From contig CP060222.1 in NCBI GenBank assembly GCA_023898425.1, forward strand, positions 930,001-962,000: a DNA stretch of 32,000 bases, given 5' to 3'. Below, piece by piece: positions 12,497 through 32,000 of this stretch. The position numbers and the translations under genes were made by a program. Under the pieces are notes generated by a model, which did not search any database, was not told where the DNA came from, and saw only the letters and a program-made list of their open reading frames with translations. Source of the DNA: Candidatus Saccharimonadota bacterium. GTDB lineage: Bacteria > Patescibacteriota > Patescibacteriia > 2-12-FULL-60-25. Every line of letters starts with the position of its first letter. Within the stretch, counting starts at the first letter, position 1.

Positions 12497-12514
12497 TACT
12501 AAATACAAAAAGTT

Positions 12515-13043: not shown

Positions 13044-13069
13044 TGTGGATAATGTTTCATATGAAACAA
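13044..13069 (+). repeat. 26-bp direct repeat, copy 1 (DnaA box + 14-bp palindrome)
   Basis: tgtggataatgtttcatatgaaacaa is identical to 13116-13141. It contains TGTGGATAA immediately followed by the perfect palindrome gtttcatatgaaac. Confidence 0.9.
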
Positions 13070-13115
13070 TTTTCATCACTACCAACTGTTGATAAGCATG
13101 TGTACAAATTTAAGC

Positions 13116-13141
13116 TGTGGATAATGTTTCATATGAAACAA
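13116..13141 (+). repeat. 26-bp direct repeat, copy 2
   Basis: A perfect copy of 13044-13069, with starts 72 bp apart. Confidence 0.9.
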
Positions 13142-14505: not shown

Positions 14506-14506
14506 T

Positions 14507-15412
14507 ATGTTTCACACGCGTTCATTATTTGCATTGATTGTATCGTTTAGCTTTTTATTGGTCATGCCTACAAAGTCTCATGCGCTTACCGTGGGCCCTG
14601 CGATTACAGATATTTCGCTTGATGCAGGGATGGTAACTACTACCAATATCGTTGTGGGTAATAATGACGCAATTTACAAAACATTTGATTTTTCTACGGA
14701 AACATTTGAAGCTGATGGTGATAAGGGTCAATCACGTTTTTTAGGAAAGACTGGCGCTGCCAACTGGTTTATTATGGATGCATCGGTAACCTTGCAGCCA
14801 GGTGAAAATAGAAAAGTACCCATCTCTCTACGTGTTCCTCAAGATGTCACGCCTGGGAGTTATCAAGTTGTTGTTTTTATAACAGAGCGTGGTTCTACCG
14901 AGTCTGGAGTAACAAATCTACAGAGAATCGGTGTCTTATTTTTTCTAATGGTACAAGGTGATACGAATGTTGTTTGGAGTGAGCCAGAGTTTCAGCAAGT
15001 ATTTTCTCAGGTTGTTAGCTTTGGAAATACTTTTCGTGTGGGATTAGAAAATAAGGGTAATACCTACGGTGTACCTTCGGGGACTATTGAGATTGCTTCG
15101 CTCTTTGGCACTTCAAAAAAAATTTCACTTAATCCTCAGCAGGTTCGCGTATTGCCAGGTAGTAAACGGTCGTATGTCGTTGGTTTTGGTGATACTCGTG
15201 CACCTAAAACGTTTGTCGAGCGTATAAAGCAAGAGTGGACGCATTTTGCTATTGGTCCCTATACCGCTAAAATGCAATTAGACGGCTATCCTGAGGTTCT
15301 TGAAACGTCATTTATTGTTTTGCCAACAGCGCTCATAAGTATTTTTACCGGTATCCTTCTATTGTTATTGGTTGTTATTACCTGGGCAAAATACGTGAGA
15401 CGTACTGTTTGA
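14507..15412 (+). CDS. secreted protein with a C-terminal transmembrane anchor; two beta-sandwich-like halves reminiscent of DUF916/DUF3324 cell-surface proteins
   Basis: 301-aa ORF starting 1 nt after the previous stop. It has a signal peptide (FALIVSFSFLLVMPTKSHA). Patterns include VTLQPGENRKVPISLRVPQDVTPGSYQVVVFI and VLPGSKRSYVV ... IGPYTAKMQL. The C-terminal TM segment is LISIFTGILLLLLVVITW followed by KYVRR. The family resemblance is from memory of sequence patterns, not a search. Confidence 0.75.
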   Translation: MFHTRSLFALIVSFSFLLVMPTKSHALTVGPAITDISLDAGMVTTTNIVVGNNDAIYKTFDFSTETFEADGDKGQSRFLGKTGAANWFIMDASVTLQPGENRKVPISLRVPQDVTPGSYQVVVFITERGSTESGVTNLQRIGVLFFLMVQGDTNVVWSEPEFQQVFSQVVSFGNTFRVGLENKGNTYGVPSGTIEIASLFGTSKKISLNPQQVRVLPGSKRSYVVGFGDTRAPKTFVERIKQEWTHFAIGPYTAKMQLDGYPEVLETSFIVLPTALISIFTGILLLLLVVITWAKYVRRTV

Positions 15413-15466
15413 TCAGGTATCAATCCATAAAGAGTTGTCTCAAGTCTTGATGGATGGTTACCCGAT

Positions 15467-18400
15467 ATGAAACATACTTTTTTTCGCTCATTACTGAGCT
15501 CTTTATTGTTACTTGTATTGTCTATTGGCAATGCGACTCCTGTTTTTGCTGCGCAACTCACAGGACGTAGTGATGTAATGACGCGCCAAGCGCCTGCGAT
15601 TGGCTCAGATCATGAGATTCGTTTTATCACGCCTACGGGTGTTGATGCCCCAACGGATACGATCACTTTGCAATTCGCAAGTGACTTTGATCTCACGGGT
15701 ATTACCGCGGCGGACATAGACCTACTTCATGGTCCTATTACCGGCCTTGAAATATCCGAAACGATTGCTGCTGCCGCGGCTGCTGGTGTTTGGGGTGCTG
15801 GCGTTAGTGGTCAAACCATTACTCTTACGGCGCCAACAAATGCAGCAATTGGAGAAATTACCGCAACTCATATCGTAACGATTCGAATCGGAAACAATGC
15901 TGGTGGTGCAAATCAGATCATCAACCCTGGCCCAGGAGCGGGTGGTGCTCCAAGAACCATGTGGATTGCCGGAACATTTGGCGATACAGGAATTATTGAA
16001 ATCCCATTTGCTCAACCTACAAATAATGATGCGATCGCTATAACAGCAACCGTTGGTGCTGTTATTGGCGGCGGTGGAGGCGGCGGTGGAGGGTGTGTTG
16101 GTATTGCCTGCGGTGATACTCAAGGGCCGATTATTTCGAATATTCGCGTTGTAAATATTACGTCGTCAACAGCAATGGTATTGTGGGATACAGACGAGCC
16201 AGCAACGACAGCGTTTTATTATGGATTAACCACAGGTTATACGGGAGGATTTATTGGTGATGGTACGCTAGTAACATCGCATAGTGTTTCGTTAACAAAT
16301 CTTACGCCTGAAACGCTTTATCATTTTCGTATTAATGGTACGGATGGGCTAGGTAATACTTCAGTAACCTTAGATAATACTTTTACAACGCTTGCGCTAG
16401 ATACACCTGTAGAAGCGCTTATTATAAGTAATGTACGCTCAATTCTTATTACGGATAGCACGGCTGCTATTACGTGGAATACAAATATCGCTGCAGATAG
16501 TAAAGTAGATTATGGAATTTCTGATGCCTACGGTTTTGTGGTTGTACGCGGGACACTTGATACCGTTCATCAATTGGATTTGAGTGGTCTCACTCCTAAT
16601 ACGACCTATCATTTTCGAGTCACATCAGAGACGGGGTTATCTAACGCTGTAACGGGAGATTTTATTTTTCAAACACTTGCCGATACAAACCCACCAGCGA
16701 ACCCACAAAATTTTGTTGCTGTAGGAGATTTTCTCCAAAATACCCTTCAATGGGTTAATCCTAATGTAGGCGATTTTTCTCATGTAAGAATTCTTGCGAG
16801 AACAGATAGATATCCGAATAATCCAAATGATGGCGTTTTAGTCTATCAAGGTAATAATCAAAATGCGATTCATAATGGTTTGGTTGCAGGGCAAGTCTAT
16901 TACTATGCGAACTTTGCCTATGATTTGAGTGGTAATCGTTCGTCAGGCGCTTTAGCTCAAGCGACACCGTTTGGTTTAACTGAAACGCCAACCAGTACGC
17001 CGCCTTTACCAACAAATCCTCCAGTCACTGATCCAGGTACTAGTCCTGGAGGTGAGAATCCTACAACAGGCGCCGTAACATCAACGCCAGAAGTACCTAC
17101 CGTTACTACCACCGAACCAGGAACGGATATTACAGATCCAGAAAAGCCAGAAATAACTGAGCCTCCAGTACAACCACCGATTCAGCCACCAGTACGCGAT
17201 ATTGTTATTACGCCAGTATATACTCTTGGTAATGGCTCAGTTGTTTTGGTGCCAAATACCAAGAACGAGATCAATACAGTGCCTGGTCCTGCGATTACGG
17301 TAGTTGTTCGATCAGAAGAGGTGCCAGGTAATCCGGAGACAGCAACGATTCTCGTGGGTAATGATCGATATCTATTAACAAAGCTACCAAACGGTGATTG
17401 GACGGCGAGCTTTGTTCCTGATCGTTCGGGTCAAATGCCTGCGCAAATTACGTTTGGTTATGATGATGGTTCTATCGCTCAAGCAACCACAACGATCATT
17501 ACTGGCGTGCCTGGGCAAGTTATTGAGCGTGATATCCCATTTATCGGGCCTGCGCGCATGGTCGAAGGTGTTCGTATAACCGTTTATCAAAAAGTAGATG
17601 GTGAGTGGATGCAATGGTCGGGTGCTATTACAGGACAAGAACATCCATTCAAGACAAAAGCTGATGGTCTTTGGGGTTTTGTTGTACAAAATGGAGAGTA
17701 TCGCGTTCTTTTTGAAAAAGAAGGATATGATACTGAGGAGAAGATCGTTACCGTTACCAATAACCTGCTTGGTTATCAGGTAGAGATAAACAAACCATTA
17801 CCGGTAGATGTGAATATTATCGGAATCATTACTACAGCTGTTGCGATAGCAAATATCGCGACAGTAGCAAGTCTTTTAAACTATCTTTGGTATCTCTTAA
17901 CGCAGCCATTTCTCATTTTCGGTGCACGTAAGCGAAAAAAGTGGGGTGTCGTCTATAATTCTATTACGAAACAAGGTATTGATTTGGTTGCCGTTCGACT
18001 TGTGCATGCAAAAACAGGTCTAACCTTACAAACGAGAGTAACGGATGAAAAAGGAAGATACTTTTTTCATGTAAAACCTGGTCAATATAAGGTTGTTGCG
18101 GTAAAGGCGGGGTACGTATTTCCGAGTGTCATAGTTAAAGATGTTAAAGAAGACGATGAGTATCTTGATGTTTATCATTCCGAAGAGGTTGCTGTTGAAG
18201 CAGAAGCAGACCTCACGATGAATATCCCAATGGATCCAAACAATAAAGAGGAAACACCGGCCAAAGTTCTCTTTAAGAGTTTCTTGCGTAAGATGCAAGG
18301 ATTTGTCGGTGCCTTATCACTGATTATTACCGGTATAGCCCTCATCCTTGAGCCTGGTTGGATATTGTTAGGGTTATTTTTGTTCCAGCTCGCAACGTAT

Positions 18401-18712
18401 CTCTTGTTTAAAAAGCTTATTGCAAGTCGTAAGCCAAAAAATTGGGGTATTGTCTCTGATGTTGATAATAAGCATCCATTAGAGCGTGTAGTGATGCGTA
18501 TCTATGACAAAAAATACAATAAGTTATTAGAAACACAGGTTACAGATGGCCGTGGGCGTTATGGATTCTTAGCTACGAAGAATACCTACTTTATAACGGC
18601 TGATAAGCCTGGCTATGATCGCTTTACTTCTGATGATATCGATCTTACAAAAGCAAAAGAGCTTGCTGTAGAGAAACCTGTTAAGCTAAAAAAGAAAAAT
18701 ATCCAACAGTAA
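15467..18712 (+). CDS. large multidomain envelope protein: signal peptide, two FN3-like repeats, Pro/Thr linker, carboxypeptidase-regulatory-like domains interleaved with TM segments
   Basis: 1081-aa ORF with a signal peptide (LLLLVLSIGNATPVFA). It contains a Gly8 run. There are two repeats of the type ISN(I/V)R...ITxSTAxxxWxTxxxAxxxxxYG...LTPxTxYHFR. The PT-rich linker lies around aa 505-575. Three units of the type TDxxGRYxF...G.Y...A.K.GY resemble CarboxypepD_reg. Hydrophobic segments lie around aa 790-830 and 955-1000. Confidence 0.85.
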   Translation: MKHTFFRSLLSSLLLLVLSIGNATPVFAAQLTGRSDVMTRQAPAIGSDHEIRFITPTGVDAPTDTITLQFASDFDLTGITAADIDLLHGPITGLEISETIAAAAAAGVWGAGVSGQTITLTAPTNAAIGEITATHIVTIRIGNNAGGANQIINPGPGAGGAPRTMWIAGTFGDTGIIEIPFAQPTNNDAIAITATVGAVIGGGGGGGGGCVGIACGDTQGPIISNIRVVNITSSTAMVLWDTDEPATTAFYYGLTTGYTGGFIGDGTLVTSHSVSLTNLTPETLYHFRINGTDGLGNTSVTLDNTFTTLALDTPVEALIISNVRSILITDSTAAITWNTNIAADSKVDYGISDAYGFVVVRGTLDTVHQLDLSGLTPNTTYHFRVTSETGLSNAVTGDFIFQTLADTNPPANPQNFVAVGDFLQNTLQWVNPNVGDFSHVRILARTDRYPNNPNDGVLVYQGNNQNAIHNGLVAGQVYYYANFAYDLSGNRSSGALAQATPFGLTETPTSTPPLPTNPPVTDPGTSPGGENPTTGAVTSTPEVPTVTTTEPGTDITDPEKPEITEPPVQPPIQPPVRDIVITPVYTLGNGSVVLVPNTKNEINTVPGPAITVVVRSEEVPGNPETATILVGNDRYLLTKLPNGDWTASFVPDRSGQMPAQITFGYDDGSIAQATTTIITGVPGQVIERDIPFIGPARMVEGVRITVYQKVDGEWMQWSGAITGQEHPFKTKADGLWGFVVQNGEYRVLFEKEGYDTEEKIVTVTNNLLGYQVEINKPLPVDVNIIGIITTAVAIANIATVASLLNYLWYLLTQPFLIFGARKRKKWGVVYNSITKQGIDLVAVRLVHAKTGLTLQTRVTDEKGRYFFHVKPGQYKVVAVKAGYVFPSVIVKDVKEDDEYLDVYHSEEVAVEAEADLTMNIPMDPNNKEETPAKVLFKSFLRKMQGFVGALSLIITGIALILEPGWILLGLFLFQLATYLLFKKLIASRKPKNWGIVSDVDNKHPLERVVMRIYDKKYNKLLETQVTDGRGRYGFLATKNTYFITADKPGYDRFTSDDIDLTKAKELAVEKPVKLKKKNIQQ

Positions 18713-18790
18713 TAACAAAGGAGTGAACAAAAAGTTTTCCACTCGACATCACAGAATATCCACAATTTGTACACAATTATACGTTTTTAA

Positions 18791-18818
18791 AAAATCCGCT
18801 TATCATAGCGGATTTTTG
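18791..18818 (+). terminator. rho-independent terminator separating the 3-gene operon from the giant gene
   Basis: aaaatccgct tatcat agcggatttttg. Confidence 0.6.
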
Positions 18819-18868
18819 TTATACGAGACCGCTTTTCCTAAAAAAGAATAGAATAAATACATATAGAT

Positions 18869-21800
18869 ATGCACAAGTTAGCAACGTACTTTTTAGAGGG
18901 AGTAAAATCCGTACTCATCGGTTCTATTGTTTTTATCGTTGCGTCAATAATTTTAGCGCCACCCTCTCACGCCGCCCCCGGCGTCCGTGCTAATGTCACC
19001 TACCAAGCTCGTCTCATGGATGCCTCAGGCTATCCAGTGGTAGATGGTGTCTATCAAATAGAGTTTAGTCTCTATGATGCAGCTGTAGCAGGCAATCGTC
19101 TTTGGTCAGCTAGTGGTACTACAGCTGTCCCTTTGCCTGTTAATGTCACCGTTCAAGATGGTCTCTTTACCGTTCTTCTTGGTGATGGTGTTACTCAACT
19201 CCCATTTACTGATATTGATTGGAACTCAGACAGCCTCTATCTCGGTGTAACTATTGGAGCCGATGGAGAAATGAGTCCTCGTAGACCTATTACAGCCGTC
19301 CCTCAAGCCATTAACTCCGCTCAACTTGGCGGAATGAGTCCTTCTAGTACCGATACCTACGGTGGAGAATCACAATTCACCATCACTCAAGCCTCAACAA
19401 CGGCAGCCACTTCAACCAGAAGTGCTTTAGATGTGAGATCCTATGGCGCAAGTGCAGCAAATGACTTTGCTTTTAGAGCTCTCACCAATGCAGGTACGCC
19501 AGCATTTACTATTACCTCTCAAGGCGTTGTATCAAGCACGAATCTTATCGTTGCTGGTCAGAATGTTTGTTTAGCCGATGGGACGGATTGTTTGCCAGGG
19601 GGTATTGAGTCTGACACCCTTCTCTCCGTTACTAACCGAGGCTCTGTTGCTACAGCAACCCTCACCCTTCTTGGAGGAGCTATTTCTAATACCGTAAACG
19701 TTACAGATACAGCAACGATCGCAAATGCTGTTGTTACGAGTACTCTCACGGTTTCTGGGACAATCTCATCAAATCTTCTTCCAACCACTGACCTTACCTA
19801 TTCTCTTGGTACACCATCTCTACGTTGGAATGGCAGTTTCGGCAATGTGACCATCCTTAATGGCACAACGACCAATGCCACCTCAACGAATTTCTTTGCT
19901 GCGAATGCAGCCTTAGGTTCTTTGATCGCAAACTCCGGCAATATCACAAGTCTTCTTGGTACCAACGCGACCTTTACGAGTGTTACATCAACCAACTTCT
20001 TCGCTTCTCTCGTATCTTCAACGCAAATTATCGTGAATGGCTTTGATGTTTGTACGAGTGATGGCGTGAACTGTCCTGCCGGTACTGGATCATTGCAGGA
20101 TGCTTATGATGGAGGAAGGGCGATTTCATTAAACGATGGTCATATTGAGTTAACTTCGGTTACAGGCACATCAGCCGATGTATTTGCTGACAATCTTGGA
20201 GCTACATTTACGAGAATGATTGGTGGTGGTGTTGCAGGTGTTACAACCACGGGTTTTGATATTCTTGGTTATGATGATGGTTTTGAACGAGGAGTAGTTC
20301 TTTCATTTAGTTTGGATCGTGATGGAATATCAGCGCTTTCGGGCGAAAGCTATTTAAATAGCACCAGCACGGCTAATATTCGCTTTAACGCTGGAGAATT
20401 TTCACAATACTTAGAGCTCAGTAATAATACTTCTTCTTTGTATTTGGCTAACGACTATATTGATTTAGCTATTAATAACGGTTCTGATGCTAAAGCGAAT
20501 ATGTTTGTAGGACCAGACGGAGTTTTCTACTTTTCTGCACAGGGGTCAAATGGTTTTTTTGATCAAACAGGATATGAATTTTATAATGATGTATCTGCCG
20601 CGTCAGTAATGCAGATCATATCTCAAAATGGCGGTAATGGCATTTGGGTTGGTAGTGACAATGATCCTAATACACAAAGTTATTTCCCTGGAGCTATAAG
20701 TGATTTACTTTTTAGACCAAATACAACAGGCGGTCCTGGTACACAACTCTATGTAAATACTGACGGTACTGATACCGGTTGGACGGGTATTGCTACGGTA
20801 GACATGTTAAGCGGTGGGTTGACTGCTACAACACTTTCGCGCGTAGGAACATCTACAAGTCCTCTTGGGGTTGCTTATACAATGGACGTACAAGGTTCAC
20901 TTCTCTTTTCAGTACACAATACCTATTTTGCGAATACGCATGATTGGAAGCTTTGGGATGTGTCCAATAAAGATGTTCCTGTTCAAGTATATGCGACTGG
21001 AAGTAGCGCATTAAACTATGTAAATTCTGGTAAATTAGCAGGTGATCGTTTGTATACGGTAGACACAACTTCTACAAAACTTTCAGTATTTGATATCTCT
21101 AATCCTTCGTTGCCAATTTTACTTGGATCGATGACAGGTACATCAACGCCTCTTTCACTTGAAAAAAAACTCGTTATTGAAGGTTCAAATGTCTACATGG
21201 CATCTGAAATTGGTTTAACGATTATTAATGCTAAAAATCCTGCGGCGATGTCAGTAACGAGTTTTACGAGTGTAGTGACTCCAGGCGGTGGTATTACGCC
21301 TGTACGCATGGATGCGCAGGATGGTTATGTATATCTTTCGACTAAGTTTGGTGTTTCGCAACCAACGTCAACCATTACGATTATCGACGCGCGTAACATC
21401 AATTCACCCTCCGTTGTAGATAGCTTTGAAGTTCCTGCAGCAACTTTTCGTGGGGATGATATAGCGGTTTCTAATGAAAAACTCTATATCTATATCTCTT
21501 CAGGAGGTAGCGAGTATATTCGCCGCTACTCTATTGCAGACCGTGAAAACCCAGTGTTAGAGACAACGTTCCCTGTAAACAATGGCACGGGTGAATTCTT
21601 TGTGAATAAAGGGTTGGTTATTACACGAGACGCTTCATCTATCATGTTATACAACGAAGATGGGCTTCTCATCGATTCGTCTTCAAGCTCGCATTCGGGA
21701 GCAATTACATACGAAGGTGGCCAAATTTATGCTAGTAACTTTGAAGGACCGACGATTAAGCTTGCTGTTTATGATATTGGAGGCGTTAATGTAAATGCCT

Positions 21801-24800
21801 TAAATGTTGCAAATGCGAGCATTGGTTCTGCTACGGTAGCGAATAATTTAACGGTTAACGGCAGATCCAGCTTTGTGAATGGTATTACGGTGCAGGGTCG
21901 TGGTGTTTGTTTGTCGGATGGTACTAACTGTCCTGCCTCTGGTTCAGGCTCCCTTCAGTCTGCATACGATCTTGGCCGAACTGTTACAACAACAAATGGT
22001 GGCATAACACTTCTTTCGCCTACCGTTGGCGGAACGAACCTATATCCAACGGCAGACTTAGATCTAAAAGAAATTATTGGCGGTGGATTTGAGTATGATC
22101 CAAATCAAGGCTTTGGGATTGCTCAATACAGCTCAACAACAGCTGCGGTTTCTAGTGGTACGATGATGTATTTTTCAACAGATCGTAGTAATCCTTTTGG
22201 TCCTTCTGCTACATCAACCTTTATTATATCCGACCTTGAGATTGGAGCGATGTATCTTGGTAATCCGCTAACAGATAACGTACTTTCATTGTATAACGAT
22301 TCTTCAAGTCTAGTATTTGATAACTTTATTACACTTGATGCGCCAACGTTAAACTTCATCGGTGATCTAGATTTACAAGGCACCGTTACAAGTGATATTA
22401 GTCCATTCTCAAGTCTTTCATTTGATCTTGGTATTTCTACTGCTAGATGGAGATTTGGTTATTTTGGAACGGTAAGCAGCACGGCGGTGCAAGCTGGTTC
22501 GGTTACTGTGGGCGGTCAAAGTGTTTGTTTAGCAAATGGTACAAATTGTTTAGCGAATGGGTCACTTCAAAGCGCTTATAATATTGGTAAATCAATTACT
22601 TTAAACAGCGGTCATATCGAATTAACCTCAGTAACGGGCACAAGCTCAGATTTTCTTACGGAGGATTTTGGTGCTACAGCTACTCGAATGATTGGTGGTG
22701 GTATTGCCGGCGTTACGACCACCGGTTTTGATATCATAGGTTATGATACGGGGAACGGTAGAGGCGTAGAGCTCACATTTAGCTCAGATCGTGATGGTGT
22801 GAATGCGCCAGCTGGTCAAAGCTATCTGTACGGTGCAAGCACGGCAAGAATCTCTTATTTAACAGATAAGTTTGATAACCCATCGTTACTTCTCAGCACA
22901 AACACATCTACGATTACGGTTGGTAATGACTATCTTTATTTCTCAGTAGTGGATAATGGCACTAGCGCTGCAAACATGAGCATGGATATCGATGGCCTTT
23001 TCTCGCTCGAAACACAGGTAGGAGGTGGTGTGGATGATGTGGCACCAATTAGGTTCAGTAACGGTGTCGATATTGGAGCGATGATTGAGCTACGCTCTCA
23101 ATTAACAAACGCCTCAATATGGCTTATTGATGATCAAGATCCAAATACGCTTGGTTACACGCCTTCCGCTATTAGTGACTTAATGTTCCGTTCAAATTCT
23201 ACGGCGGGTCCAGGCTCCCAACTTTATGTAAATACTGATGGTACAGATACAGGTTGGACGGGTATTGCTACGGTAGATATGTTAAGCAGCCTCACGCTAC
23301 AGGATGTTTACAATGCAGGCACATCTATTAGTACAGGCTTTGGTCCGGTGGTGCTAAACGCTTCAACCACAGGCCCTGATTTATTCCCTGCTTTTCCATG
23401 GTTAGATTCGTATCGCACTCTTGTTTCTAAAGGTTTTGATGATGACGGTATCGCCTTTAATCATGGCTCTGGTACATGGGACAATCAACATTATATCGAG
23501 TTCTTTAATGATGTATCTTTGCCGCCAATCACTTCTGTTTCTAGCTCATATATTATGGGTGATACTATGGCAGGAACACTTGATTTGGTTGGAGGAAGAG
23601 GTGTTAATATAGGGCTAGGAAATGCAACAACGACATTCAATACAAATGTCATCGTTGCCCCAGGAAAAGGTGTTGCGAGTAACTTCTCACCGTTTTTAAG
23701 CGATACCTATTCAATAGGAGATGCAAGCAAACGATGGGACCGAGGTTTCTTTAATGCGGTAAGTTCAACGCTCCTCGATTTAGTTAGCGGTTCAATTGCT
23801 ATTGGTAATTATGGCGCGTCATCTACGCCTGTACTCTCAGCTTCTCACAACCAAGGTGGTATTGATGGCTTCGATGTCCTTATGCTTAATGATATTGGAG
23901 TGACAGGTACGGCGCTCTTTACAACCGCTGATCGAAGTAAGGGGTTACCATTCCAGAATAACGGTCTAACTAAGACAACTTCTACTGCATTATACAGTTA
24001 TTATACAGATGTTTCTTCAACGTTGATTTTGCTAAACAAGGCAAATGACAATGCATCAATGATTAACATGACGGATAGCAATATTGATATTTCTGCTGCC
24101 GTAGGCACTTCTACAGATGGTCTTATAACTATGAGAGGAGAGTCTATTGGTCCTGCTGTCCGTGTTTCAAACAATAGCTCTTCGTTAGATCAAAGTTGGG
24201 ATCTATTTGCTCGTCGTTTATTAGTGGGTGAAGCTGTAAGCGCGACGGGTACGGCTGATTATAATATGGTGATCAGTTATACAAATGCAGGGCTTTGTTT
24301 GGACGATGTAACCAACGGAGCAACCTGTCCAACATCTGTTGCAGGATCAATCTTTGCAGACGGTACCATCACTTCAGATGCGTTCGATCTTGCCGAAATG
24401 TACAATGTCTCCGGTACGGCCTCAGCTGGTGATCTCGTCAAAATCACAAAAACAGCTACGGCTACCGTAGAAATCACAAATGGTATCGAGTATGACAATG
24501 ACACCATTGGTGTTATCTCCACAAAACCAGGTTTCTTGCTTGGTTGGGAAGGTGACGTTCAAGTAGCTCTTGCTGGTCGAGTCCCTACAAAAGTTTCTGT
24601 AGGAAACGGTACGATTGTAGCGGGTGATCGACTCACTACCTCACCAATCCCAGGAGTAGCCATGAAAGCAACGCGTCCTGGTCAAATCATTGGTATTGCT
24701 CTTGAAGATGCTAATGTTAGCGGAGTAATCGAAGTCTTTATTCAGCCAGGCTTTGATATGAGCTCAGCCTTTGCTGCCGATGGCTCAATGACGCTAGTAA

Positions 24801-25786
24801 ATGAATATGGCTCTACAACATTTTCCGTAAGTGCCGAAGGTGATGCATTCTTCTTAGGCGGTGTTAGTGCAACAAGCTTTACGACACATGCGGCATTTGA
24901 TCTCGCGGAACAATACGTTTCGGCAGATACGCTAGAGCCGGGTGACATTGTTGTTGCAAGTCCAAGCGGTAATCTCATGATTCAGCGTTCTGCTGATGCA
25001 AATACCTTGCCTATGGGTATTATCTCAACAGCTCCAGGGTTTACACTTGGCGCTAAGTCAGAAGGATCATATCCTGTAGCTCTTGCTGGCCGTGTTCCTA
25101 CCAAGGTCTCTACAATTAATGGTTCTATTAAGGCTGGAGACTTGCTCGCACCAACGGATATTCCTGGCGTTGCAGGTAAAGCGGTAGAAGATGGCCCTGT
25201 AGTGGGCATTGCTCTTGAGAGTTATGAAGGTGCTGATACAGGAATGATTGAAGTCTTTGTAAAATCCGTTTGGTATTCGAAGCCTAATCAAACACCAGCG
25301 CAGATTATCGAAAATAACACCTATGTAACAAACATTTCTGAATCTTCGCCAAGTGTTGTTCGTCGCGGCCTCGCCTCTATTGAGTCTGGTGCCGTTAAAG
25401 TCCATGTCTCGTTTGAAACGTTGCTTGGCTACCCATTTGTACAGGTAACACCGCGCGGTCTCATTGTGGGATCATGGTCTACGGATAATTATAGCGATAC
25501 AGGATTTGATATCATCTTAGAGCAACCGCAAACATTTGATGTGATCTTTGGTTGGGAGGCAAGTGCGCTTAGTGGCTCAACCATGATGATGATGTCTGAT
25601 GGAACGAGCTTGCTTGTTGATCCAACGACTGGTCAGGTTATTGTGCAGGAGCCTGAAGAAGAGGTGGTTGATGATACTGAAATTATCACCGATCCTGATG
25701 TAGACGCTCCACAGGTAGATGTAGTAAGTGATCCAACAGTAGTATCTGAAGAAGTTCCTGTGCCAGAGTCTGCTCCTGAAGAGTAA
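18869..25786 (+). CDS. giant (2305 aa) tail-fibre-like surface protein with an N-terminal signal/anchor, LVIVD-like beta-propeller region and tandem C-terminal modules
   Basis: One uninterrupted 6.9-kb ORF. The N-terminal hydrophobic segment is followed by SHA-AP. A fibre-like N-module is present (VTYQARLMDASGYPVVDG...YLGVTIG...RRPITAVPQAINSAQLGG). The motif VC(L/T)xDG(T/V)xC recurs four times, and (D/S)(L/I)Gxx(S/T)x(R/K)RW recurs three times. The stretch aa ~655-1010 looks like LVIVD repeats (LSVFDISNPSLPILLGSM, TITIIDARNINSPSVVDSF). Two ~125-aa modules are of the type FDLAExY...ALAGRVPTKVS...IEVF. The tail is acidic. Confidence 0.9.
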   Translation: MHKLATYFLEGVKSVLIGSIVFIVASIILAPPSHAAPGVRANVTYQARLMDASGYPVVDGVYQIEFSLYDAAVAGNRLWSASGTTAVPLPVNVTVQDGLFTVLLGDGVTQLPFTDIDWNSDSLYLGVTIGADGEMSPRRPITAVPQAINSAQLGGMSPSSTDTYGGESQFTITQASTTAATSTRSALDVRSYGASAANDFAFRALTNAGTPAFTITSQGVVSSTNLIVAGQNVCLADGTDCLPGGIESDTLLSVTNRGSVATATLTLLGGAISNTVNVTDTATIANAVVTSTLTVSGTISSNLLPTTDLTYSLGTPSLRWNGSFGNVTILNGTTTNATSTNFFAANAALGSLIANSGNITSLLGTNATFTSVTSTNFFASLVSSTQIIVNGFDVCTSDGVNCPAGTGSLQDAYDGGRAISLNDGHIELTSVTGTSADVFADNLGATFTRMIGGGVAGVTTTGFDILGYDDGFERGVVLSFSLDRDGISALSGESYLNSTSTANIRFNAGEFSQYLELSNNTSSLYLANDYIDLAINNGSDAKANMFVGPDGVFYFSAQGSNGFFDQTGYEFYNDVSAASVMQIISQNGGNGIWVGSDNDPNTQSYFPGAISDLLFRPNTTGGPGTQLYVNTDGTDTGWTGIATVDMLSGGLTATTLSRVGTSTSPLGVAYTMDVQGSLLFSVHNTYFANTHDWKLWDVSNKDVPVQVYATGSSALNYVNSGKLAGDRLYTVDTTSTKLSVFDISNPSLPILLGSMTGTSTPLSLEKKLVIEGSNVYMASEIGLTIINAKNPAAMSVTSFTSVVTPGGGITPVRMDAQDGYVYLSTKFGVSQPTSTITIIDARNINSPSVVDSFEVPAATFRGDDIAVSNEKLYIYISSGGSEYIRRYSIADRENPVLETTFPVNNGTGEFFVNKGLVITRDASSIMLYNEDGLLIDSSSSSHSGAITYEGGQIYASNFEGPTIKLAVYDIGGVNVNALNVANASIGSATVANNLTVNGRSSFVNGITVQGRGVCLSDGTNCPASGSGSLQSAYDLGRTVTTTNGGITLLSPTVGGTNLYPTADLDLKEIIGGGFEYDPNQGFGIAQYSSTTAAVSSGTMMYFSTDRSNPFGPSATSTFIISDLEIGAMYLGNPLTDNVLSLYNDSSSLVFDNFITLDAPTLNFIGDLDLQGTVTSDISPFSSLSFDLGISTARWRFGYFGTVSSTAVQAGSVTVGGQSVCLANGTNCLANGSLQSAYNIGKSITLNSGHIELTSVTGTSSDFLTEDFGATATRMIGGGIAGVTTTGFDIIGYDTGNGRGVELTFSSDRDGVNAPAGQSYLYGASTARISYLTDKFDNPSLLLSTNTSTITVGNDYLYFSVVDNGTSAANMSMDIDGLFSLETQVGGGVDDVAPIRFSNGVDIGAMIELRSQLTNASIWLIDDQDPNTLGYTPSAISDLMFRSNSTAGPGSQLYVNTDGTDTGWTGIATVDMLSSLTLQDVYNAGTSISTGFGPVVLNASTTGPDLFPAFPWLDSYRTLVSKGFDDDGIAFNHGSGTWDNQHYIEFFNDVSLPPITSVSSSYIMGDTMAGTLDLVGGRGVNIGLGNATTTFNTNVIVAPGKGVASNFSPFLSDTYSIGDASKRWDRGFFNAVSSTLLDLVSGSIAIGNYGASSTPVLSASHNQGGIDGFDVLMLNDIGVTGTALFTTADRSKGLPFQNNGLTKTTSTALYSYYTDVSSTLILLNKANDNASMINMTDSNIDISAAVGTSTDGLITMRGESIGPAVRVSNNSSSLDQSWDLFARRLLVGEAVSATGTADYNMVISYTNAGLCLDDVTNGATCPTSVAGSIFADGTITSDAFDLAEMYNVSGTASAGDLVKITKTATATVEITNGIEYDNDTIGVISTKPGFLLGWEGDVQVALAGRVPTKVSVGNGTIVAGDRLTTSPIPGVAMKATRPGQIIGIALEDANVSGVIEVFIQPGFDMSSAFAADGSMTLVNEYGSTTFSVSAEGDAFFLGGVSATSFTTHAAFDLAEQYVSADTLEPGDIVVASPSGNLMIQRSADANTLPMGIISTAPGFTLGAKSEGSYPVALAGRVPTKVSTINGSIKAGDLLAPTDIPGVAGKAVEDGPVVGIALESYEGADTGMIEVFVKSVWYSKPNQTPAQIIENNTYVTNISESSPSVVRRGLASIESGAVKVHVSFETLLGYPFVQVTPRGLIVGSWSTDNYSDTGFDIILEQPQTFDVIFGWEASALSGSTMMMMSDGTSLLVDPTTGQVIVQEPEEEVVDDTEIITDPDVDAPQVDVVSDPTVVSEEVPVPESAPEE
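18966..19955 (+). repeat. paralogous block 1 shared with 26206-27194 (about 0.99 kb, direct orientation)
   Basis: The base-by-base offset is 7239, changing by 1 at single-base indels. Flanking tracts are identical. A diverged patch (about 19190-19400 / 26430-26640) carries mostly synonymous changes. Confidence 0.9.
22511..24900 (+). repeat. paralogous block 2 shared with 27457-29845 (about 2.4 kb, direct orientation)
   Basis: The offset is 4946, then 4945 after a 1-bp deletion in the downstream copy. Long near-identical tracts are interrupted by a diverged patch (23645-23815 / 28590-28760). Divergence rises after about 24565 / 29510. Confidence 0.9.
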
Positions 25787-25819
25787 AAACAATAAACAGT
25801 TTATACACATTTTATCAAC

Positions 25820-25856
25820 AAGCCCCGTATGATGCGAAAAATGCACATACGGGGCT
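25820..25856 (+). terminator. terminator hairpin after the giant gene
   Basis: aagccccgtatg (25820-25831), a 13-nt loop, then catacggggctt (25845-25856), followed by tgttt. Confidence 0.6.
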
Positions 25857-26110
25857 TTGTTTAGCGAAATATTATAACTTGGCTCATCGATTAGTTAATC
25901 AAAGCTATAATAAAGATAACCATTTGCAGAGTCCTGAATCTCGTTGGGGAATGAGATTCTTGTGATGAGAAGTGGTCAGTATGAAAGATATTTTGTGGGG
26001 TCTGATGTCACTGAAATAATCAGTAACATAAGATAAATGGTCTACTCATAAAATAGAAAATTCCTACCAATATATTATTGGCGGTATTGTTTTTGATATT
26101 GACTACAGCG

Positions 26111-27088
26111 ATGGAGAGTAATCTCTATGAATATTTTGCAAAACGCAAAGCGCACGCTCTTTTTGCCGCAATACTATTTTGCGGTCTCCTTTTTTTCGAC
26201 CTCTGCTCACGCCGCCCCGGCGTCCGTGCTAATGTCACCTACCAAGCTCGTCTCATGGATGCCTCAGGCTATCCAGTGGTAGATGGTGTCTATCAAATAG
26301 AGTTTAGTCTCTATGATGCAGCTGTAGCAGGCAATCGTCTTTGGTCAGCTAGTGGTACTACAGCTGTCCCTTTGCCTGTTAATGTCACCGTTCAAGATGG
26401 TCTCTTTACCGTTCTTCTTGGTGATGGTGTTACTCAACTCCCATTTACCAATATTGATTGGAACTCAGACAGCCTCTATCTCGGTGTAACTATTGGAGCC
26501 GATGGAGAAATGAGTCCACGAAGACCCATTACAGCCGTTCCTCAAGCCATTAATTCTGCTCAACTTGGCGGAATGAGTCCATCTAGTACTGACACCTATG
26601 GTGGAGAATCACAATTCACCATCACTCAAGCTTCAACCACCGCAGCCACTTCAACCAGAAGTGCTTTAGATGTGAGATCCTATGGCGCAAGTGCAGCAAA
26701 TGACTTTGCTTTTAGAGCTCTCACCAATGCAGGTACGCCAGCATTTACTATTACCTCTCAAGGCGTTGTATCAAGCACGAATCTTATCGTTGCTGGTCAG
26801 AATGTTTGTTTAGCCGATGGGACGGATTGTTTGCCAGGGGGTATTGAGTCTGACACCCTTCTCTCCGTTACTAACCGAGGCTCTGTTGCTACAGCAACCC
26901 TCACCCTTCTTGGAGGAGCTATTTCTAATACCGTAAACGTTACAGATACAGCAACGATCGCAAATGCTGTTGTTACGAGTACTCTCACGGTTTCTGGGAC
27001 AATCCATCAAATCTTCTTCCAACCACTGACCTTACCTATTCTCTTGGTACACCATCTCTACGTTGGAATGGCAGTTTCGGCAATGTGA
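26111..27088 (+). pseudogene. fragment 1 of the disrupted tandem paralog of the giant fibre gene (own N-terminal leader + fibre N-module)
   Basis: The track ORF is 26078-27088 and the likely ATG is 26111 (MESNLYEYFAKRKAHALFAAILFCGLLFF). It matches the giant protein from PGVRANVTYQ to TLTVSGTI. A 1-bp deletion relative to 19766 (aatctcatc versus aatccatc at 27004/27005) then shifts the frame, and a stop follows at 27086-27088. Confidence 0.8.
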
Positions 27089-28029
27089 CCATCCTTAATG
27101 GCACAACGACCAATGCCACCTCAACGAATTTCTTTGCTGCGAATGCAGCCTTAGGTTCTTTGATCGCAAACTCCGGCAATATCACAAGTCTTCTTGCAAC
27201 AAATGCGACATTCACAAGCGTTACTTCAACGAATGGCTTCTTCTCAAGCCTTGTTGGCTCCACCTTTGCTGCTGGTTCAGCAACGGTTGGTACTTCAACC
27301 ATCGGTTTCGTGAATGTGACAGGCTCTCTTTTTGCTCCAAGTGGAACGATAACAGATCTTAATGGCTCTGGTCTCGTCTTCTCGAATGCAACCTTTACCA
27401 ATGCGACCGCAACAACCCTCTTTGCTTCTCTTGTTTCTTCCTCTCAAATATTCGTTGGTGGTCAGAGCGTCTGTTTAGCAAATGGTACAAATTGTTTAGC
27501 GGATGGGTCACTTCAAAGCGCTTATAATGCTGGTAAATCCATCACGTTAAACAGCGGTCATATCGAATTAACCTCAGTAACGGGCACAAGCTCAGATTTT
27601 CTTACGGAGGATTTTGGTGCTACAGCTACTCGAATGATTGGTGGTGGTATTGCCGGCGTTACGACCACCGGTTTTGATATCATAGGTTATGATACGGGGA
27701 ACGGTAGAGGCGTAGAGCTCACATTTAGCTCAGATCGTGATGGTGTGAATGCGCCAGCTGGTCAAAGCTATCTGTACGGTGCAAGCACGGCAAGAATCTC
27801 TTATTTAACAGATAAGTTTGATAACCCATCGTTACTTCTCAGCACAAACACATCTACGATTACGGTTGGTAATGACTATCTTTATTTCTCAGTAGTGGAT
27901 AATGGCACTAGCGCTGCAAACATGAGCATGGATATCGATGGCCTTTTCTCGCTCGAAACACAGGTAGGAGGTGGTGTGGATGATGTGGCACCAATTAGGT
28001 TCAGTAACGGTGTCGATATTGAGCGATGA
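27085..28029 (+). pseudogene. fragment 2 of the disrupted paralog
   Basis: The homologous frame is already open from about 27007 (SSNLLPTTDLTYSLG...). This fragment contains a 260-bp segment unique to this copy (27196-27456). It then rejoins the giant gene at its VGGQSVCLANGTNC module. It ends after a 1-bp deletion (tattggagcg versus tattgagcg at 28020/28021). Confidence 0.8.
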
Positions 28030-30029
28030 TTGAGCTACGCTCTCAATTAACAAACGCCTCAATATGGCTTATTGATGATCAAGATCCAAATACGCTTGGT
28101 TACACGCCTTCCGCTATTAGTGACTTAATGTTCCGTTCAAATTCTACGGCGGGTCCAGGCTCCCAACTTTATGTAAATACTGATGGTACAGATACAGGTT
28201 GGACGGGTATTGCTACGGTAGATATGTTAAGCAGCCTCACGCTACAGGATGTTTACAATGCAGGCACATCTATTAGTACAGGCTTTGGTCCGGTGGTGCT
28301 AAACGCTTCAACCACAGGCCCTGATTTATTCCCTGCTTTTCCATGGTTAGATTCGTATCGCACTCTTGTTTCTAAAGGTTTTGATGATGACGGTATCGCC
28401 TTTAATCATGGCTCTGGTACATGGGACAATCAACATTATATTGAGTTCTTTAATGATGTATCTTTGCCGCCAATCACTTCTGTTTCTAGCTCATATATTA
28501 TGGGTGATACTATGGCAGGAACACTTGATTTGGTTGGAGGAAGAGGTGTTAATATAGGGCTAGGAAATGCAACAACGACATTCAATACAAATATTATTGT
28601 AACCCCAGGAAAAGGTATTGCAAGTAATTTCTCACCGTTTTTAAATGATACCTATACTATAGGAGATGCTAGTAAACGTTGGAATCGAGGCTACTTTAAC
28701 GCTGTAAGTTCTACGCTTCTTGATTTAGTTAGTGGTTCAGTTGTTATTGGTAATTATGGCGCGTCATCTACGCCTGTGCTCTCAGCTTCTCACAACCAAG
28801 GTGGTATTGATGGCTTCGATGTCCTTATGCTTAATGATATTGGAGTGACAGGTACGGCGCTCTTTACAACCGCTGATCGAAGTAAGGGGTTACCATTCCA
28901 GAATAACGGTCTAACTAAGACAACTTCTACTGCATTATACAGTTATTATACAGATGTTTCTTCAACGTTGATTTTGCTAAACAAGGCAAATGACAATGCA
29001 TCAATGATTAACATGACGGATAGCAATATTGATATTTCTGCTGCCGTAGGCACTTCTACAGATGGTCTTATAACTATGAGAGGAGAGTCTATTGGTCCTG
29101 CTGTCCGTGTTTCAAACAATAGCTCTTCGTTAGATCAAAGTTGGGATCTATTTGCTCGTCGTTTATTAGTGGGTGAAGCTGTAAGCGCGACGGGTACGGC
29201 TGATTATAATATGGTGATCAGTTATACAAATGCAGGGCTTTGTTTGGACGATGTAACCAACGGAGCAACCTGTCCAACATCTGTTGCAGGATCAATCTTT
29301 GCAGACGGTACCATCACTTCAGATGCGTTCGATCTTGCCGAAATGTACAATGTCTCCGGTACGGCCTCAGCTGGTGATCTCGTCAAAATCACAAAAACAG
29401 CTACGGCTACCGTAGAAATCACAAATGGTATCGAGTATGACAATGACACCATTGGTGTTATCTCCACAAAACCAGGTTTCTTGCTTGGTTGGGAAGGTGA
29501 CGTTCAAGTAGCTCTCGCTGGTCGAGTCCCTACAAAAGTTTCTGTAGGAAACGGTACGATTGTAGCTGGTGATCGTCTCACAACCTCGCCGATTCCAGGT
29601 GTAGCAATGAAGGCAACGCGCCCTGGACAAATCATCGGTATTGCTCTCGAAGACGCTCATGTTAGCGGTGTAATCGAAGTCTTTATTCAGCCTGGCTTTG
29701 ATATGAGTTCTGCCTTTGCTGCGGATGGATCAATGACCCTTACAAATGAATACGGATCAACGACATTCTCTGTAAGTGCCGAAGGTGATGCGTTCTTCTT
29801 AGGCGGTGTTAGTGCAACAAGCTTTACGACGCATGCGGCATTTGATTTGGCTGAACGATATTCTTCGCCAGACAAGCTTGAGCCAGGAGACTTGGTAATG
29901 ATCAATGCAAAAGCGGATATGCAAATGGTACGTACCATGGATGAATCTTCGACGGCCGTTGGTATTATTTACTACTGCCCTGGATTTACCTTGGTGCTGC
30001 TACTGAGGGGACATTCCCGGTTGCCTTAG
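28026..30029 (+). pseudogene. fragment 3 of the disrupted paralog
   Basis: 667 aa, nearly identical to giant-protein residues of about 1405-2020. It ends after an apparent 1-bp deletion in ttggg (29991-29995), because the FTLGAATEGTFPVALAGRVPTKVST reading continues in another frame. Confidence 0.8.
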
Positions 30030-30037
30030 CGGGCCGC

Positions 30038-30670
30038 GTGCCAACCAAGGTGTCTACAATGAATGGCGCTATTGCTTCAGGTGATGCAATTATGGTGTCT
30101 TCTATACCTGGTGTTGGAGTAAAAGCTACTAATGAAGGGATGATTGTAGGGTATGCGTTAGAATCATTCGAAAAAGGTGATATTGGGATGATTGAAGTCT
30201 TTGTCCAACCAGGTTATTGGATGCCTGCGCAAAACAACGCGAAGAATCTTACTGCTGACGTAGCTACCCAATCAGGCGCGCAGCATCAAGGATTCGCTTT
30301 TATTGAGATGGAAGGCACTTCGGTACATGTCTCATATCCGAGTATTCTTGCTTACCCTGTACCTCAGGTGACGGCCCTAACTCATGTAAAGGGAGATTGG
30401 TGGTTAGATAAAATTACCGACGAAGGGTTTGATATTGTTCTTGAAACAAAGCAAGACGTAGATATTCGATTTGCCTGGCAGGTAAATCCAGCTCAAGTTG
30501 GTACGCTTCAGTATCATTCTGATGGCACCTACGGTGAAATTGATCCGCTAACAGGTAAATTAATTGTGATTGAAGAGGATCCTATCGAAGAACCTGTAGA
30601 TGATCCTGCAATAGACCAAATCGAAGAACCTATTGTACCAGAAGTCGTAGTTGAAGAGGTTGTTGAATAG
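30038..30670 (+). pseudogene. fragment 4 of the disrupted paralog (diverged C-terminal module and acidic tail)
   Basis: The homologous frame is open from 29993. The sequence (V)PTKVSTMNGAIASGDAI...MIEVFVQPG...GFDIVLE... parallels the giant protein C-terminus at lower identity. Confidence 0.8.
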
Positions 30671-30833: not shown

Positions 30834-31175
30834 ATGCCAGGTCTCGCGAAGTTTTTAAGTCGCTTTATTGACGGATGTTTGTACCTTTTGGTATTTGCGC
30901 TTCCGCTTATTGCTTGCCAAAGATTTACGGACGCCATTGATTTTAGCAAACAAAGCGTTTTAATCCCGGTTGTTGCTTTTATGCTAGTCGCTTGGATCGC
31001 AAAGGTTGTTGCGGAGCGCAAACTCGTCTTAACACGTCATTGGATGCATGTTGTTGTTGGGTTGTATGGTATCGGGTATTTATTGTCCGCGGCGTTTTCA
31101 CAGGATAGAGCCCTCTCTCGTTTTTTGGAGCTCCGGGGCAGGTTGTTTGGTCGTTTGCAACCGTTATTTCGTTGA
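30834..31175 (+). pseudogene. O-antigen-ligase-like polytopic membrane protein, N-terminal fragment (frame broken near 31110-31126)
   Basis: 113-aa ORF with hydrophobic helices (CLYLLVFALPLIA, VLIPVVAFMLVAWIAKV, VVVGLYGIGYLL). After SQDRA the sensible reading (PLSFFGAPGQVVWSFATVISLIALYFVV) continues in another frame. Confidence 0.55.
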
Positions 31176-32000
31176 TTGCTCTCTACTTTGTCGTTACACA
31201 TCAAGTACGTTCAACGCAAAAGCTTTATGATCTTCTCTTAGCTTATCTAGGAGGCTCTTTGTTTGTTGCTCTATTTGGGTTATTGCAGATTTTTGGCGTA
31301 CATCTCGTTGGTGGTGTTTTTCAAAACAATGGCATAAATACGGTCGGTACAGCATATTCGCTCGCCGCATATCTTGTTGTTCCGTTATTATTGTCCGCTG
31401 GACTCGCTTTTCATGGTTGCCGTAATAAAGTTTGTTTACTTGGTTCAAGTGGCACCGCAGGCAAAGTAGCAAGATTGATTGTATGGACGACGGGCATCGT
31501 ATCACTTGCATACATTCTATTGGTTGATTATTGGCTTACTTGGGCGATTATTTTGGTGGGTGCCATTACGATGGTCGTTATTGCTTTTGCACGTACCAGA
31601 AAAGTAACAAGCCCTGTTAAGCTCGTGATCCCAGGATTGCTTATCCTTCTCTCTGTTGTACTCCTTGCCTTTAAAGTACCTGTTTCATTAAATGTCGCTA
31701 GCGAAGTATCACCTTCGGCAACAGCATCTTATGCCATTGCAAAACAGGCTTTACGTGACAATGTTATCTTTGGCACAGGTCCTGGCACATGGATTTACGA
31801 TTATGCGAAATACCGTAATCAATTGGTAAACCTCTCGCCATTCTGGAATGTACGATTTGATCGTGGGTATTCTGCATTCATGACCTTGCTTGCTACAACA
31901 GGTATTGCTGGCATCTCGTTATGGCTTATTGTTATCTTGTCACTTGCAGTAAAAGCAGTCAGTAGGCTCTTTAAAAGAAAAAAAGATGATGATACGTGGT
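31109..32000 (+). pseudogene. O-antigen-ligase-like membrane protein, continuation in a second frame; runs off the right window edge
   Basis: My translation is open from 31109 to the window end. It shows multiple TM helices and the motif NVIFGTGPGTWIYDYAKYR, typical of Wzy/O-antigen-ligase-like proteins. It is absent from the ORF track because no stop lies inside the window. Confidence 0.6.

Follow-up and report, generated by a model that had tools for sequence, protein, structure and literature searches.

What does a single unbroken open reading frame (ORF) of 2305 amino acids (aa) encode when it lies among the replication genes of a Patescibacteria genome, and does it belong to the cell or to a phage? 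The question is raised by a window of 32,000 nucleotides (nt) from Candidatus Saccharimonadota bacterium (GenBank assembly GCA_023898425.1, contig CP060222.1, positions 930,001 to 962,000 of the forward strand), to which all coordinates below refer. The original prediction, made from the letters alone, took this giant gene for a cellular fibre or adhesin with phage-like motifs and could name no function for its C-terminal module. We conclude, with moderate confidence and by analogy with phage fibres, that the gene probably encodes a Sec-exported, trimeric, self-processing giant surface fibre, likely an adhesin, of a bacterium of the Candidate Phyla Radiation (CPR; also named Patescibacteria). 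The features on which this reading rests are collected in Table 1.

One clue lies near the C-terminus, where the two tandem modules of the original prediction were recovered by self-comparison (aa 1835-1959 against aa 2006-2132; 47% identity, E = 3e-26). A function can in fact be proposed for them: by profile and predicted fold, the module is a divergent intramolecular chaperone (IMC) domain of the type found in the pre-neck appendage protein gp12 of phage phi29 (MEROPS G2; PF11962, Peptidase_G2). A profile of 36 family modules matched gp12 in the PDB (6qz9_A, E = 6.9e-4; 3gqh_A, E = 9.7e-4), with profile positions 4-73 aligned to gp12 residues 677-745. In this alignment, the D-L-A-E motif of the window protein falls on D-F-A-E of gp12, where the 3gqh chain, the C-terminal fragment that is released, has its residue 1; the chain of 3suc, an entry titled ‘pre-mature’ gp12, has Q in place of that E (D-F-A-Q). 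We take the gp12 cleavage site to lie between S691 and D692, so that D-L-A-E is placed on D692-E695. Among 169 relatives with two modules, the D, A and E of the motif were 97-100% conserved in both copies (D 99%, E 99-100%), a pattern that points to selection on D-x-A-E in each of them. Module 2 is the more strongly conserved of the two across the family.

Structure prediction led to the same relatives. We modeled aa 1751-2305 as a monomer with AlphaFold2 (AF2), using a 38-row alignment. The model contains three domains with confident local structure (predicted local distance difference test, pLDDT, > 90), namely module 1, module 2 and a β-sandwich in the tail, followed by a disordered acidic end; with a predicted template modeling score (pTM) of 0.38, the placement of the domains relative to each other is unreliable. 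A Foldseek search of the PDB ranked 3suc first (E = 5.5e-4, probability 1.0, 208 columns), ahead of the base of the phi29 head fibre (gp8.5) and of capsid cement proteins. Against BFVD, the top match was a ‘Preneck appendage protein’ (E = 1.3e-10), one of 85 matches at E ≤ 1e-3. Homologs of the window protein also approached the 25-bit cut-off of PF11962 exactly on the module (24.8, 21.2 and 16.6 bits), and matches below that cut-off were obtained for six of the ten relatives checked. Another fibre chaperone, Peptidase_S74 (PF13884), had no match in the window protein.

Searches with the module returned hundreds of close homologs, and the whole module family comprised 30,673 cluster representatives at E ≤ 1e-3, or 25,390 when the limit was set to E ≤ 1e-10; the top 150 all carry two or three modules. 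At the level of the giant protein, we collected 56 homologs of 1272-3985 aa, labeled almost without exception Patescibacteria, Uhrbacteria or Magasanikbacteria. Their conservation is concentrated in the first ~400 and the last ~550 aa, while the middle is poorly conserved, and about 37 of the 56 have the module pair followed by ~90-220 further aa (the remainder after the second module has a median of 218 aa in the 169 two-module relatives). Minimal members of ~870-950 aa consist of the N-terminal domain, the module pair within ~1 kb and the tail, with nothing more. To judge from these alignments, the family is large, and its members vary in the middle while their ends are conserved. In the window protein, the N-terminal ~400 aa comprise a signal peptide, a β-sandwich and a repeat-bearing stalk; the middle holds a propeller and two to three copies of a ~283-aa domain; and the C-terminal ~550 aa form what we call the cassette. 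Some relatives carry Peptidase_S74 instead of, or beside, the G2-like module (P0073, P0154, P0178). In eight proteins (P0063, P0073, P0081, P0085, P0089, P0093, P0095 and P0097), the module is split by an insertion of ~90-115 aa between its halves; they include a protein of a Planctomycetaceae metagenome-assembled genome (MAG; P0063), two from one 5.1-Mb contig (P0089 and P0093) and one that also has a downstream Peptidase_S74 (P0073).

The module also occurs in phages. It is 38-45% identical to the extreme C-termini of structural proteins of jumbo phages (Pseudomonas phage PA5oct gp359, a ‘virion structural protein’, and Agrobacterium phage Atu_ph07 gp176, with a further relative in Campylobacter phage CP220), which share DLAE.Y, GVIST.PG, ALAGRVPVKV and GD.L..S..PGVA with the window modules. 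There, unlike in the window protein, the module is single and stands at the extreme C-terminus with DLAE intact, in a virion context beside tail-fibre genes, and neither the N-terminal family domain nor the signal peptide nor the lectin-like tail is present in these proteins. Phages thus carry the module in the canonical IMC position. Because (M/I)G....(RW/PF)..IY precedes the module in these phage proteins much as LGxxxxRW occurs in the stalk of the giant protein, the original suggestion that DLGxxxxRW is a motif of the phage tail-fibre kind gains support. The best-supported account of the assembly cassette is that it was derived from, or is shared with, phage fibres.

Beyond the modules, the cassette ends in a β-sandwich that resembles H-type lectins by predicted fold only. 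Foldseek aligned it with HPA, SLL-2 and discoidin II at probabilities of 0.99-1.0 and TMt of 0.52-0.56, but at E = 0.15-0.24; across the entries 2ccv, 4q56, 3wmp and 2vm9, the values were 0.72-1.0 and 0.23-0.56, with weak E of 0.14-0.24. A 29-sequence profile of the domain matched nothing in Pfam (including PF09458) and no sequence in the PDB.

At the other end, the protein begins with a plausible Sec signal peptide. The original prediction had described a signal or anchor with an AHA-type cleavage context; the signal remains plausible, with S-H-A rather than A-H-A at positions -3 to -1. The A-H-A site is found instead in the downstream paralog described below, as read from an independent assembly, and homologs of the giant protein start with comparable A-x-A sites. 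A second AF2 model, covering aa 30-1010 from a hand-made fragment alignment (mean pLDDT 51.5), was confident only for the N-terminal β-sandwich at aa ~41-145 (nt 18989-19303; pLDDT 87-97). Ser, Gly, Thr and Asn are abundant in the protein, and its ten cysteines all belong to five C-x6/9-C pairs; a C-x6-C hairpin precedes the propeller and each copy of the ~283-aa domain. A regular-expression search found [LI]G....RW three times (aa 313, 1187 and 1616), and VC.xDGxxC occurs four times. In scans of the whole protein and of seven segments against Pfam, and of the protein against NCBIfam and PHROGs, all matches were sub-threshold, and the stalk at aa 1489-1824 had no family match in any of the three; phmmer against the PDB gave nothing for the whole protein and chance matches only (retinol-binding protein) for the module pair.

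Self-comparison likewise bore out the predicted internal duplication. Copies A and B of the ~283-aa domain (nt 20012-20860 and 22487-23332) share 47-70% aa identity (E down to 5e-53) and ~60% nt identity, a weaker third copy lies at aa 1006-1165, and the duplication as a whole is old at the DNA level. The predicted 22-aa repeat, LYVNTDGTDTGWTGIATVDMLS, is indeed present in two places, one at aa 627 and the other at aa 1452, and the two agree at 61 of 66 nt. A query with copy A found nothing outside this organism, its sole match being the ORF of the downstream paralog; in wider searches, the JGI protein P0122 was the only strong match to the domain. Between the copies lies the region that had been proposed as an LVIVD-like β-propeller. 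It contains about seven blade-like repeats of the form h-x-h-h-D-h-x-x-P and matches TIGR04312 (E = 1.4e-6), but stays below the gathering score of PF08309, with a single repeat match of 16.3-16.6 bits against a cut-off of 20.2 bits. With phmmer, aa ~650-1010 aligned to regions of homologs (E = 5e-13, 6e-12 and 2e-8) that themselves score 102-124 bits for PF08309 in five stretches. Structure modeling failed here (pLDDT ~32-78); the Foldseek matches of the weak model were all β-propellers, but at E ≥ 6.8e-3. We therefore regard the region as a sub-threshold LVIVD relative, supported mainly through its homology to bona fide LVIVD propellers in related proteins.

The giant gene is not alone. Terminator-like hairpins with U-runs lie on both sides of it (fold -17.2 kcal/mol, z = -6.1, and -26.3 kcal/mol, z = -6.5, against shuffled sequence); both escaped a simple terminator scan and were found by folding against shuffles. 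They agree with the original view of a terminator-bounded unit, but the gene is one of two tandem paralogs inside a larger conserved cluster. DnaA-box-like 9-mers, each with one mismatch, occur beside these hairpins outside both gene ends (18756-18764 and 25801-25820), possibly by chance.

To follow the gene order in other genomes, we scanned species-representative genomes with the N-terminal domain. A single protein as query found no relatives, and a 15-sequence alignment found 358 related stretches, from which we kept 78 loci for all synteny counts. A homolog of the FnIII membrane protein lies upstream in 53 of these; the pilin-like and chaperone-like genes are present as well in 41-42, in the same order and orientation; and the TPR protein lies downstream in 25. 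The remaining loci are mostly short contigs or later genes of a paralog array. Relatives carry several separate fibre loci per genome, and tandem arrays of two to three or more fibre paralogs (1487-3316 aa), followed by the TPR protein, are found at L002, L003, L005, L006 and on CAWFIX010000003.1 (L054, L055, L080, L082). The giant gene is thus part of a conserved five-part cluster, present in dozens of Patescibacteria genomes, in which genes for a pilin-like protein, a membrane-anchored chaperone-like protein and an FnIII membrane protein are followed by at least one fibre paralog and then by a TPR membrane protein. The TPR gene is frameshifted in the window and matches the intact 823-aa ortholog at L002 with 53% identity (tblastn) across two frames.

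This arrangement resembles a neighbourhood described recently. A preprint (Troman et al., 2026; bioRxiv 10.64898/2026.03.03.709456) describes a CPR pam operon with pilins, chaperones that have C-terminal transmembrane helices and an FnIII anchor, and mentions in passing a ‘tail fibre-like protein’ consistently co-localised with it. The neighbours in the window fit this architecture and are at most candidates for Pam membership. The pilin-like ORF matched NF058579 (CPR_pilus_PamT; E = 5e-9) with 35.9 bits, far under the 240-bit cut-off, and NF058581 (CPR_Pam_pilin_C; E = 0.003), also far under cut-off. The next ORF, chaperone-like by architecture only, had no match in Pfam, NCBIfam or the PDB, and the upstream ORFs tested for Pam membership had none in the PDB. 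NCBIfam scans of the cluster genes of relatives gave generic TPR matches only.

How might such a fibre be built? If gp12 is a guide, three chains would associate after export through their C-terminal modules; these would set the register in which the upstream chains fold into a trimeric fibre, and would then cleave the chain immediately ahead of the Asp of D-x-A-E, at F1839-D1840 and/or F2010-D2011. For the phi29 and K1F tailspikes, taken together, chains expressed without their chaperone part are reported to aggregate. An array of paralogs with a swappable middle would, in addition, diversify binding specificity. Trimerisation, self-cleavage, surface display and a ligand are what we infer; homology, fold, motif conservation and synteny are what we observed.

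Several observations weigh against this reading. At the sequence level, the match to the PDB extends over the module's first half only, and PF11962 itself did not match the window protein, whole or in segments, even at E ≤ 10. In known proteins an IMC is single and is the last domain, while here two modules stand in tandem and are followed by ~160 further residues that include a folded, conserved, lectin-like β-sandwich, which cleavage would discard; in the minimal family members the cassette makes up more than half of the protein. Autocleavage of gp12 is reportedly ATP-dependent, and ATP is unavailable to a protein folding outside the membrane. The AF2 models are poor for the stalk, the ~283-aa domain and the propeller, and the link to Pam is based on matches far below the curated cut-offs. 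Because of the tandem modules, the downstream lectin-like domain, the ATP requirement and a cassette so large in minimal members that it may be retained and functional, we keep a substantial, if less probable, alternative: the same surface fibre, but one whose mature form keeps both gp12-like barrels and the lectin-like domain as a distal head that binds a ligand or oligomerises. The barrels would then be relatives of phage head-fibre bases and capsid cement proteins, and D-x-A-E would be structural or would yield a nicked complex that remains associated. The second half of the module does have fold matches, and weak sequence matches, to the phi29 gp8.5 base, capsid cement or decoration proteins and DUF2190, all of them stable structural barrels, and the distinct conservation profiles of modules 1 and 2 in their tandem arrangement suggest subfunctionalisation. 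This alternative has difficulty with the near-invariance of D, A and E in both modules, exactly in register with the gp12 cleavage site, and with the phage copies of the module, which sit where IMCs sit. Our tentative extension, which we consider doubtful, is that the cluster encodes an undescribed CPR surface organelle: a Pam-like module for donor-strand-type assembly would be coupled to phage-derived trimeric fibres, the barrels and lectin-like domain would be kept as a distal host-binding head, with or without internal nicking, and recombination among near-identical tandem paralogs would swap the central cassettes of propeller and novel domains and so change host specificity.

Two further explanations concern the gene rather than the protein. 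Phage structural proteins share with the giant protein its C-terminal module and its LGxxxxRW motif, as well as weak PHROG matches, and the gene might code for the tail fibre of a prophage or phage remnant, or of a CPR phage that had integrated beside the replication origin. However, scans with Pfam, PHROG and NCBIfam found no capsid, portal, terminase, integrase or other phage function among the neighbours in the window, as the original prediction had also held, and the flanks are cellular, with dnaA, dnaN, a class A penicillin-binding protein gene (PBP1), polA, a holA-like gene, the gene for S20 and two tRNAs. The protein has a predicted Sec signal peptide, its N-terminal 371 aa had no tblastn match in 50,697 phage genomes, and the surrounding cellular cluster recurs in 41-53 of 78 loci from different species. 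Because of this cellular context and conserved synteny, we rejected a prophage origin and give it next to no chance; the same evidence favours the cellular fibre or adhesin proposed originally. There is also a slight chance that the ORF is partly an assembly chimera of at least two near-identical paralogs joined across the repeated ~283-aa domain. The two paralogs in the window have stretches that are 94-97% identical, the same assembly has homopolymer-type indels in the second paralog and in the TPR gene, and an independent short-read MAG, labeled Candidatus Magasanikbacteria, breaks exactly within the repeats, leaving nt 22988-24326 without independent support. That MAG nevertheless matches the window at 98.5-99.1% nt identity over 8764-22987 (99.1% over 12645-22987) and at 98.1% over 24327-26281, which confirms the junction between the two genes; the ORF is unbroken across 6.9 kb, as had been predicted; and full-length relatives share the domain order, such as P0122 (2627 aa), with its duplicated domain, propeller, duplicated domain, two modules and tail. 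A chimera is therefore unlikely, and the cellular surface fibre remains the reading we prefer.

The second paralog, gene 2, is 97.1% identical to nt 18966-20002 and 94.0% identical to nt 22508-25129 of the giant gene (blastn), with a diverged 3' end, and the propeller and one duplicated domain are missing from it. Four 1-nt deletions relative to the giant gene interrupt it, the indels lying at 26215, 27005, 28021 and 29990. The ORF at 27085-28029 has an identical counterpart among NCBI proteins, from a MAG labeled Candidatus Nomurabacteria bacterium. We rejected a simple pseudogene, as all three differences between its 5' end and the independent MAG are homopolymer lengths (T5/T6, T7/T6 and C4/C5); in the frame of the MAG, its signal peptide is intact (MNILQNAKRTLFFAAILFCGLLFSTSAHA, followed by APG). 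Because of these homopolymer differences, and because the TPR gene is frameshifted too, the breaks are probably assembly errors, with less certainty for the other three indels. Phase variation at these homopolymers is possible.

Table 1. Features of the giant fibre gene and its gene cluster, with window coordinates, strand and basis.
Feature	Position	Strand	Basis or remark
Pilin-like secreted protein, 304 aa	13591..14505	+	Weak NCBIfam matches; syntenic in 41/78 loci
Protein with signal peptide and C-terminal transmembrane helix, 301 aa; chaperone-like by architecture only	14507..15412	+	Sequence; syntenic in 42/78 loci
FnIII / CarboxypepD_reg membrane protein with multiple transmembrane helices, 1081 aa	15467..18712	+	Pfam; syntenic in 53/78 loci
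Upstream terminator-like hairpin with U-run	18790..18822	+	Between FnIII gene and fibre gene; folding against shuffles
Giant fibre gene, 2305 aa	18869..25786	+	ATG start; ORF list and translation
Predicted Sec signal peptide, aa 1-35	18869..18973	+	Read from sequence as MHKLATYFLEGVKSVLIGSIVFIVASIILAPPSHA followed by APG; cleavage after S-H-A
Family-conserved N-terminal region, aa 36-400	18974..20068	+	Covered by 31-47 of 56 homologs
C-x6-C pair, aa 234-241	19568..19591	+	Other pairs at 20051-20074, 21908-21931, 22526-22549 and 24296-24328 (the last C-x9-C)
LGxxxxRW motif, copy 1, aa 313-320	19805..19828	+	Regular-expression search; other copies at 22427-22450 and 23714-23737
Lineage-specific ~283-aa domain, copy A, aa 382-664	20012..20860	+	Self-comparison; AF2 confidence low
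Divergent LVIVD-type β-propeller region, aa 665-1005, ~7 blades	20861..21883	+	Repeats, sub-threshold LVIVD match, homologs
~283-aa domain, weak partial third copy, aa 1006-1165	21884..22363	+	Self-comparison, E = 1e-13, 35-42% identity
~283-aa domain, copy B, aa 1207-1488	22487..23332	+	Self-comparison
S/T/G-rich stalk, aa 1489-1824	23333..24340	+	Almost no homolog coverage
gp12/G2-type IMC module 1, aa 1825-1967	24341..24769	+	Hidden Markov model match, E = 1.6e-51; AF2 pLDDT > 90
D-L-A-E motif of module 1, aa 1840-1843	24386-24397	+	Predicted cleavage between F1839 and D1840
gp12/G2-type module 2, aa 1998-2142	24860..25294	+	Hidden Markov model match, E = 2.6e-55; AF2 pLDDT > 90
D-L-A-E motif of module 2, aa 2011-2014	24899-24910	+	Sequence
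Conserved C-terminal β-sandwich, H-type-lectin-like fold, aa ~2160-2255	25346..25633	+	AF2 pLDDT 90-97
Acidic, Pro/Val-rich low-complexity tail, predicted disordered	25634..25783	+	Sequence; pLDDT ~40-53
Downstream terminator-like hairpin with U-run	25817..25861	+	Folding against shuffles
Second, shorter fibre paralog (gene 2), read as four ORFs	26078..30670	+	blastn to giant gene; without the equivalent of giant aa ~380-1213
Polytopic TPR-repeat membrane protein, ~820 aa in relatives	30834..32000	+	Frameshifted near 31175, runs off window; syntenic in 25/78 loci

Elsewhere in the window, 31 sites match the DnaA box with at most one mismatch, against ~9 expected. Clusters of DnaA-box-like sites lie at 2313-2582 and 3813-3853, with six sites between dnaA and dnaN and three beyond dnaN; the intergenic cluster is likely oriC. 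Five more sites, at 12832-13124, fall in a 1.1-kb non-coding gap (12496-13591) upstream of the fibre cluster. This gap also holds a perfect 26-nt direct repeat, TGTGGATAATGTTTCATATGAAACAA, in 13044-13141 (two copies 72 nt apart), each copy of which contains a perfect DnaA box (TTATCCACA, minus strand) and the palindrome TGTTTCATATGAAACA. The tRNA genes are at 7493-7564 (minus strand) and 11925-11996 (plus strand), with Rfam RF00005 scores of 69 and 65 bits. A 218-aa ORF at 6788-7444 (plus strand), adjoining the penicillin-binding protein gene, has no Pfam match; its PHROG matches, at E = 8e-8 to 4e-5, are to families that resemble L-alanyl-D-glutamate peptidases, and its probable product is a cell-wall hydrolase.

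Among known systems, phi29 gp12 (3GQH, 3SUC, 6QZ9) is one of the closest to the proposed fibre. Both have a homologous barrel by profile (E = 7e-4) and by fold, with D-x-A-E aligned to the gp12 cleavage site, downstream of an elongated fibre or spike. In contrast to gp12, which ends with its single module, the fibre protein continues after two modules into a lectin-like domain and an acidic tail; it is encoded by a cell, carries a predicted Sec signal peptide and is too divergent for detection by PF11962; and its upstream part is a stalk with a propeller and novel domains rather than a pectate-lyase-like β-helix. The chaperone of endosialidases and of the T5 L-shaped tail fibre (Peptidase_S74) is likewise a C-terminal, self-cleaving trimerisation chaperone on fibres, but its fold is unrelated and it has a Ser-Lys dyad. 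The Pam-associated ‘tail fibre-like protein’ (bioRxiv 10.64898/2026.03.03.709456), compared here by description only, lies in a CPR-specific setting of secreted pilin-like proteins, chaperones with a transmembrane helix at the C-terminus, plus an FnIII membrane anchor; the window has neighbours of these kinds in a conserved order. Pam pilins, however, are reported mainly from Saccharimonadia and Microgenomatia, whereas the fibre loci are mostly labeled Uhrbacteria, Magasanikbacteria or Patescibacteria. Finally, CPR epibionts such as Vampirococcus lugosii have giant proteins, secreted or associated with the membrane, in which propeller and adhesion domains occur and whose proposed roles are host attachment and a fibrous cell surface (PMC8080830); these proteins were described by WD40, PKD, integrin and fibronectin domains, with no phage-type IMC cassette or conserved cluster reported. 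Giant surface proteins of CPR (PMC8080830), IMC domains of phages and, in passing, a Pam-associated tail-fibre-like protein were thus already known. In the literature on Peptidase_G2 and on CPR tail-fibre proteins, we found no prior description of a tandem gp12-like cassette with a lectin-like tail, of the size of the module family or of the conserved five-part cluster.

With these results, a domain family of great size (~25,000 sequence clusters at E ≤ 1e-10), which Pfam Peptidase_G2 reaches only weakly, can be named and provided with a mechanism open to testing. The results also suggest that cells have adopted a phi29-type fibre chaperone module, in tandem, at the end of giant, predicted-secreted fibres, with self-cleavage proposed by analogy. 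Metaproteomes that already exist allow a direct check of the predicted cleavage sites, and the conserved five-part cluster is now defined for experimental follow-up. CPR bacteria are thought to live attached to other microbes, and to our knowledge few of the molecules that make this contact are known beyond type IV pili and the recently described Pam pili. If these fibres do recognise hosts, arrays of paralogs with conserved ends and swappable middles would offer a simple route to a change of host range.

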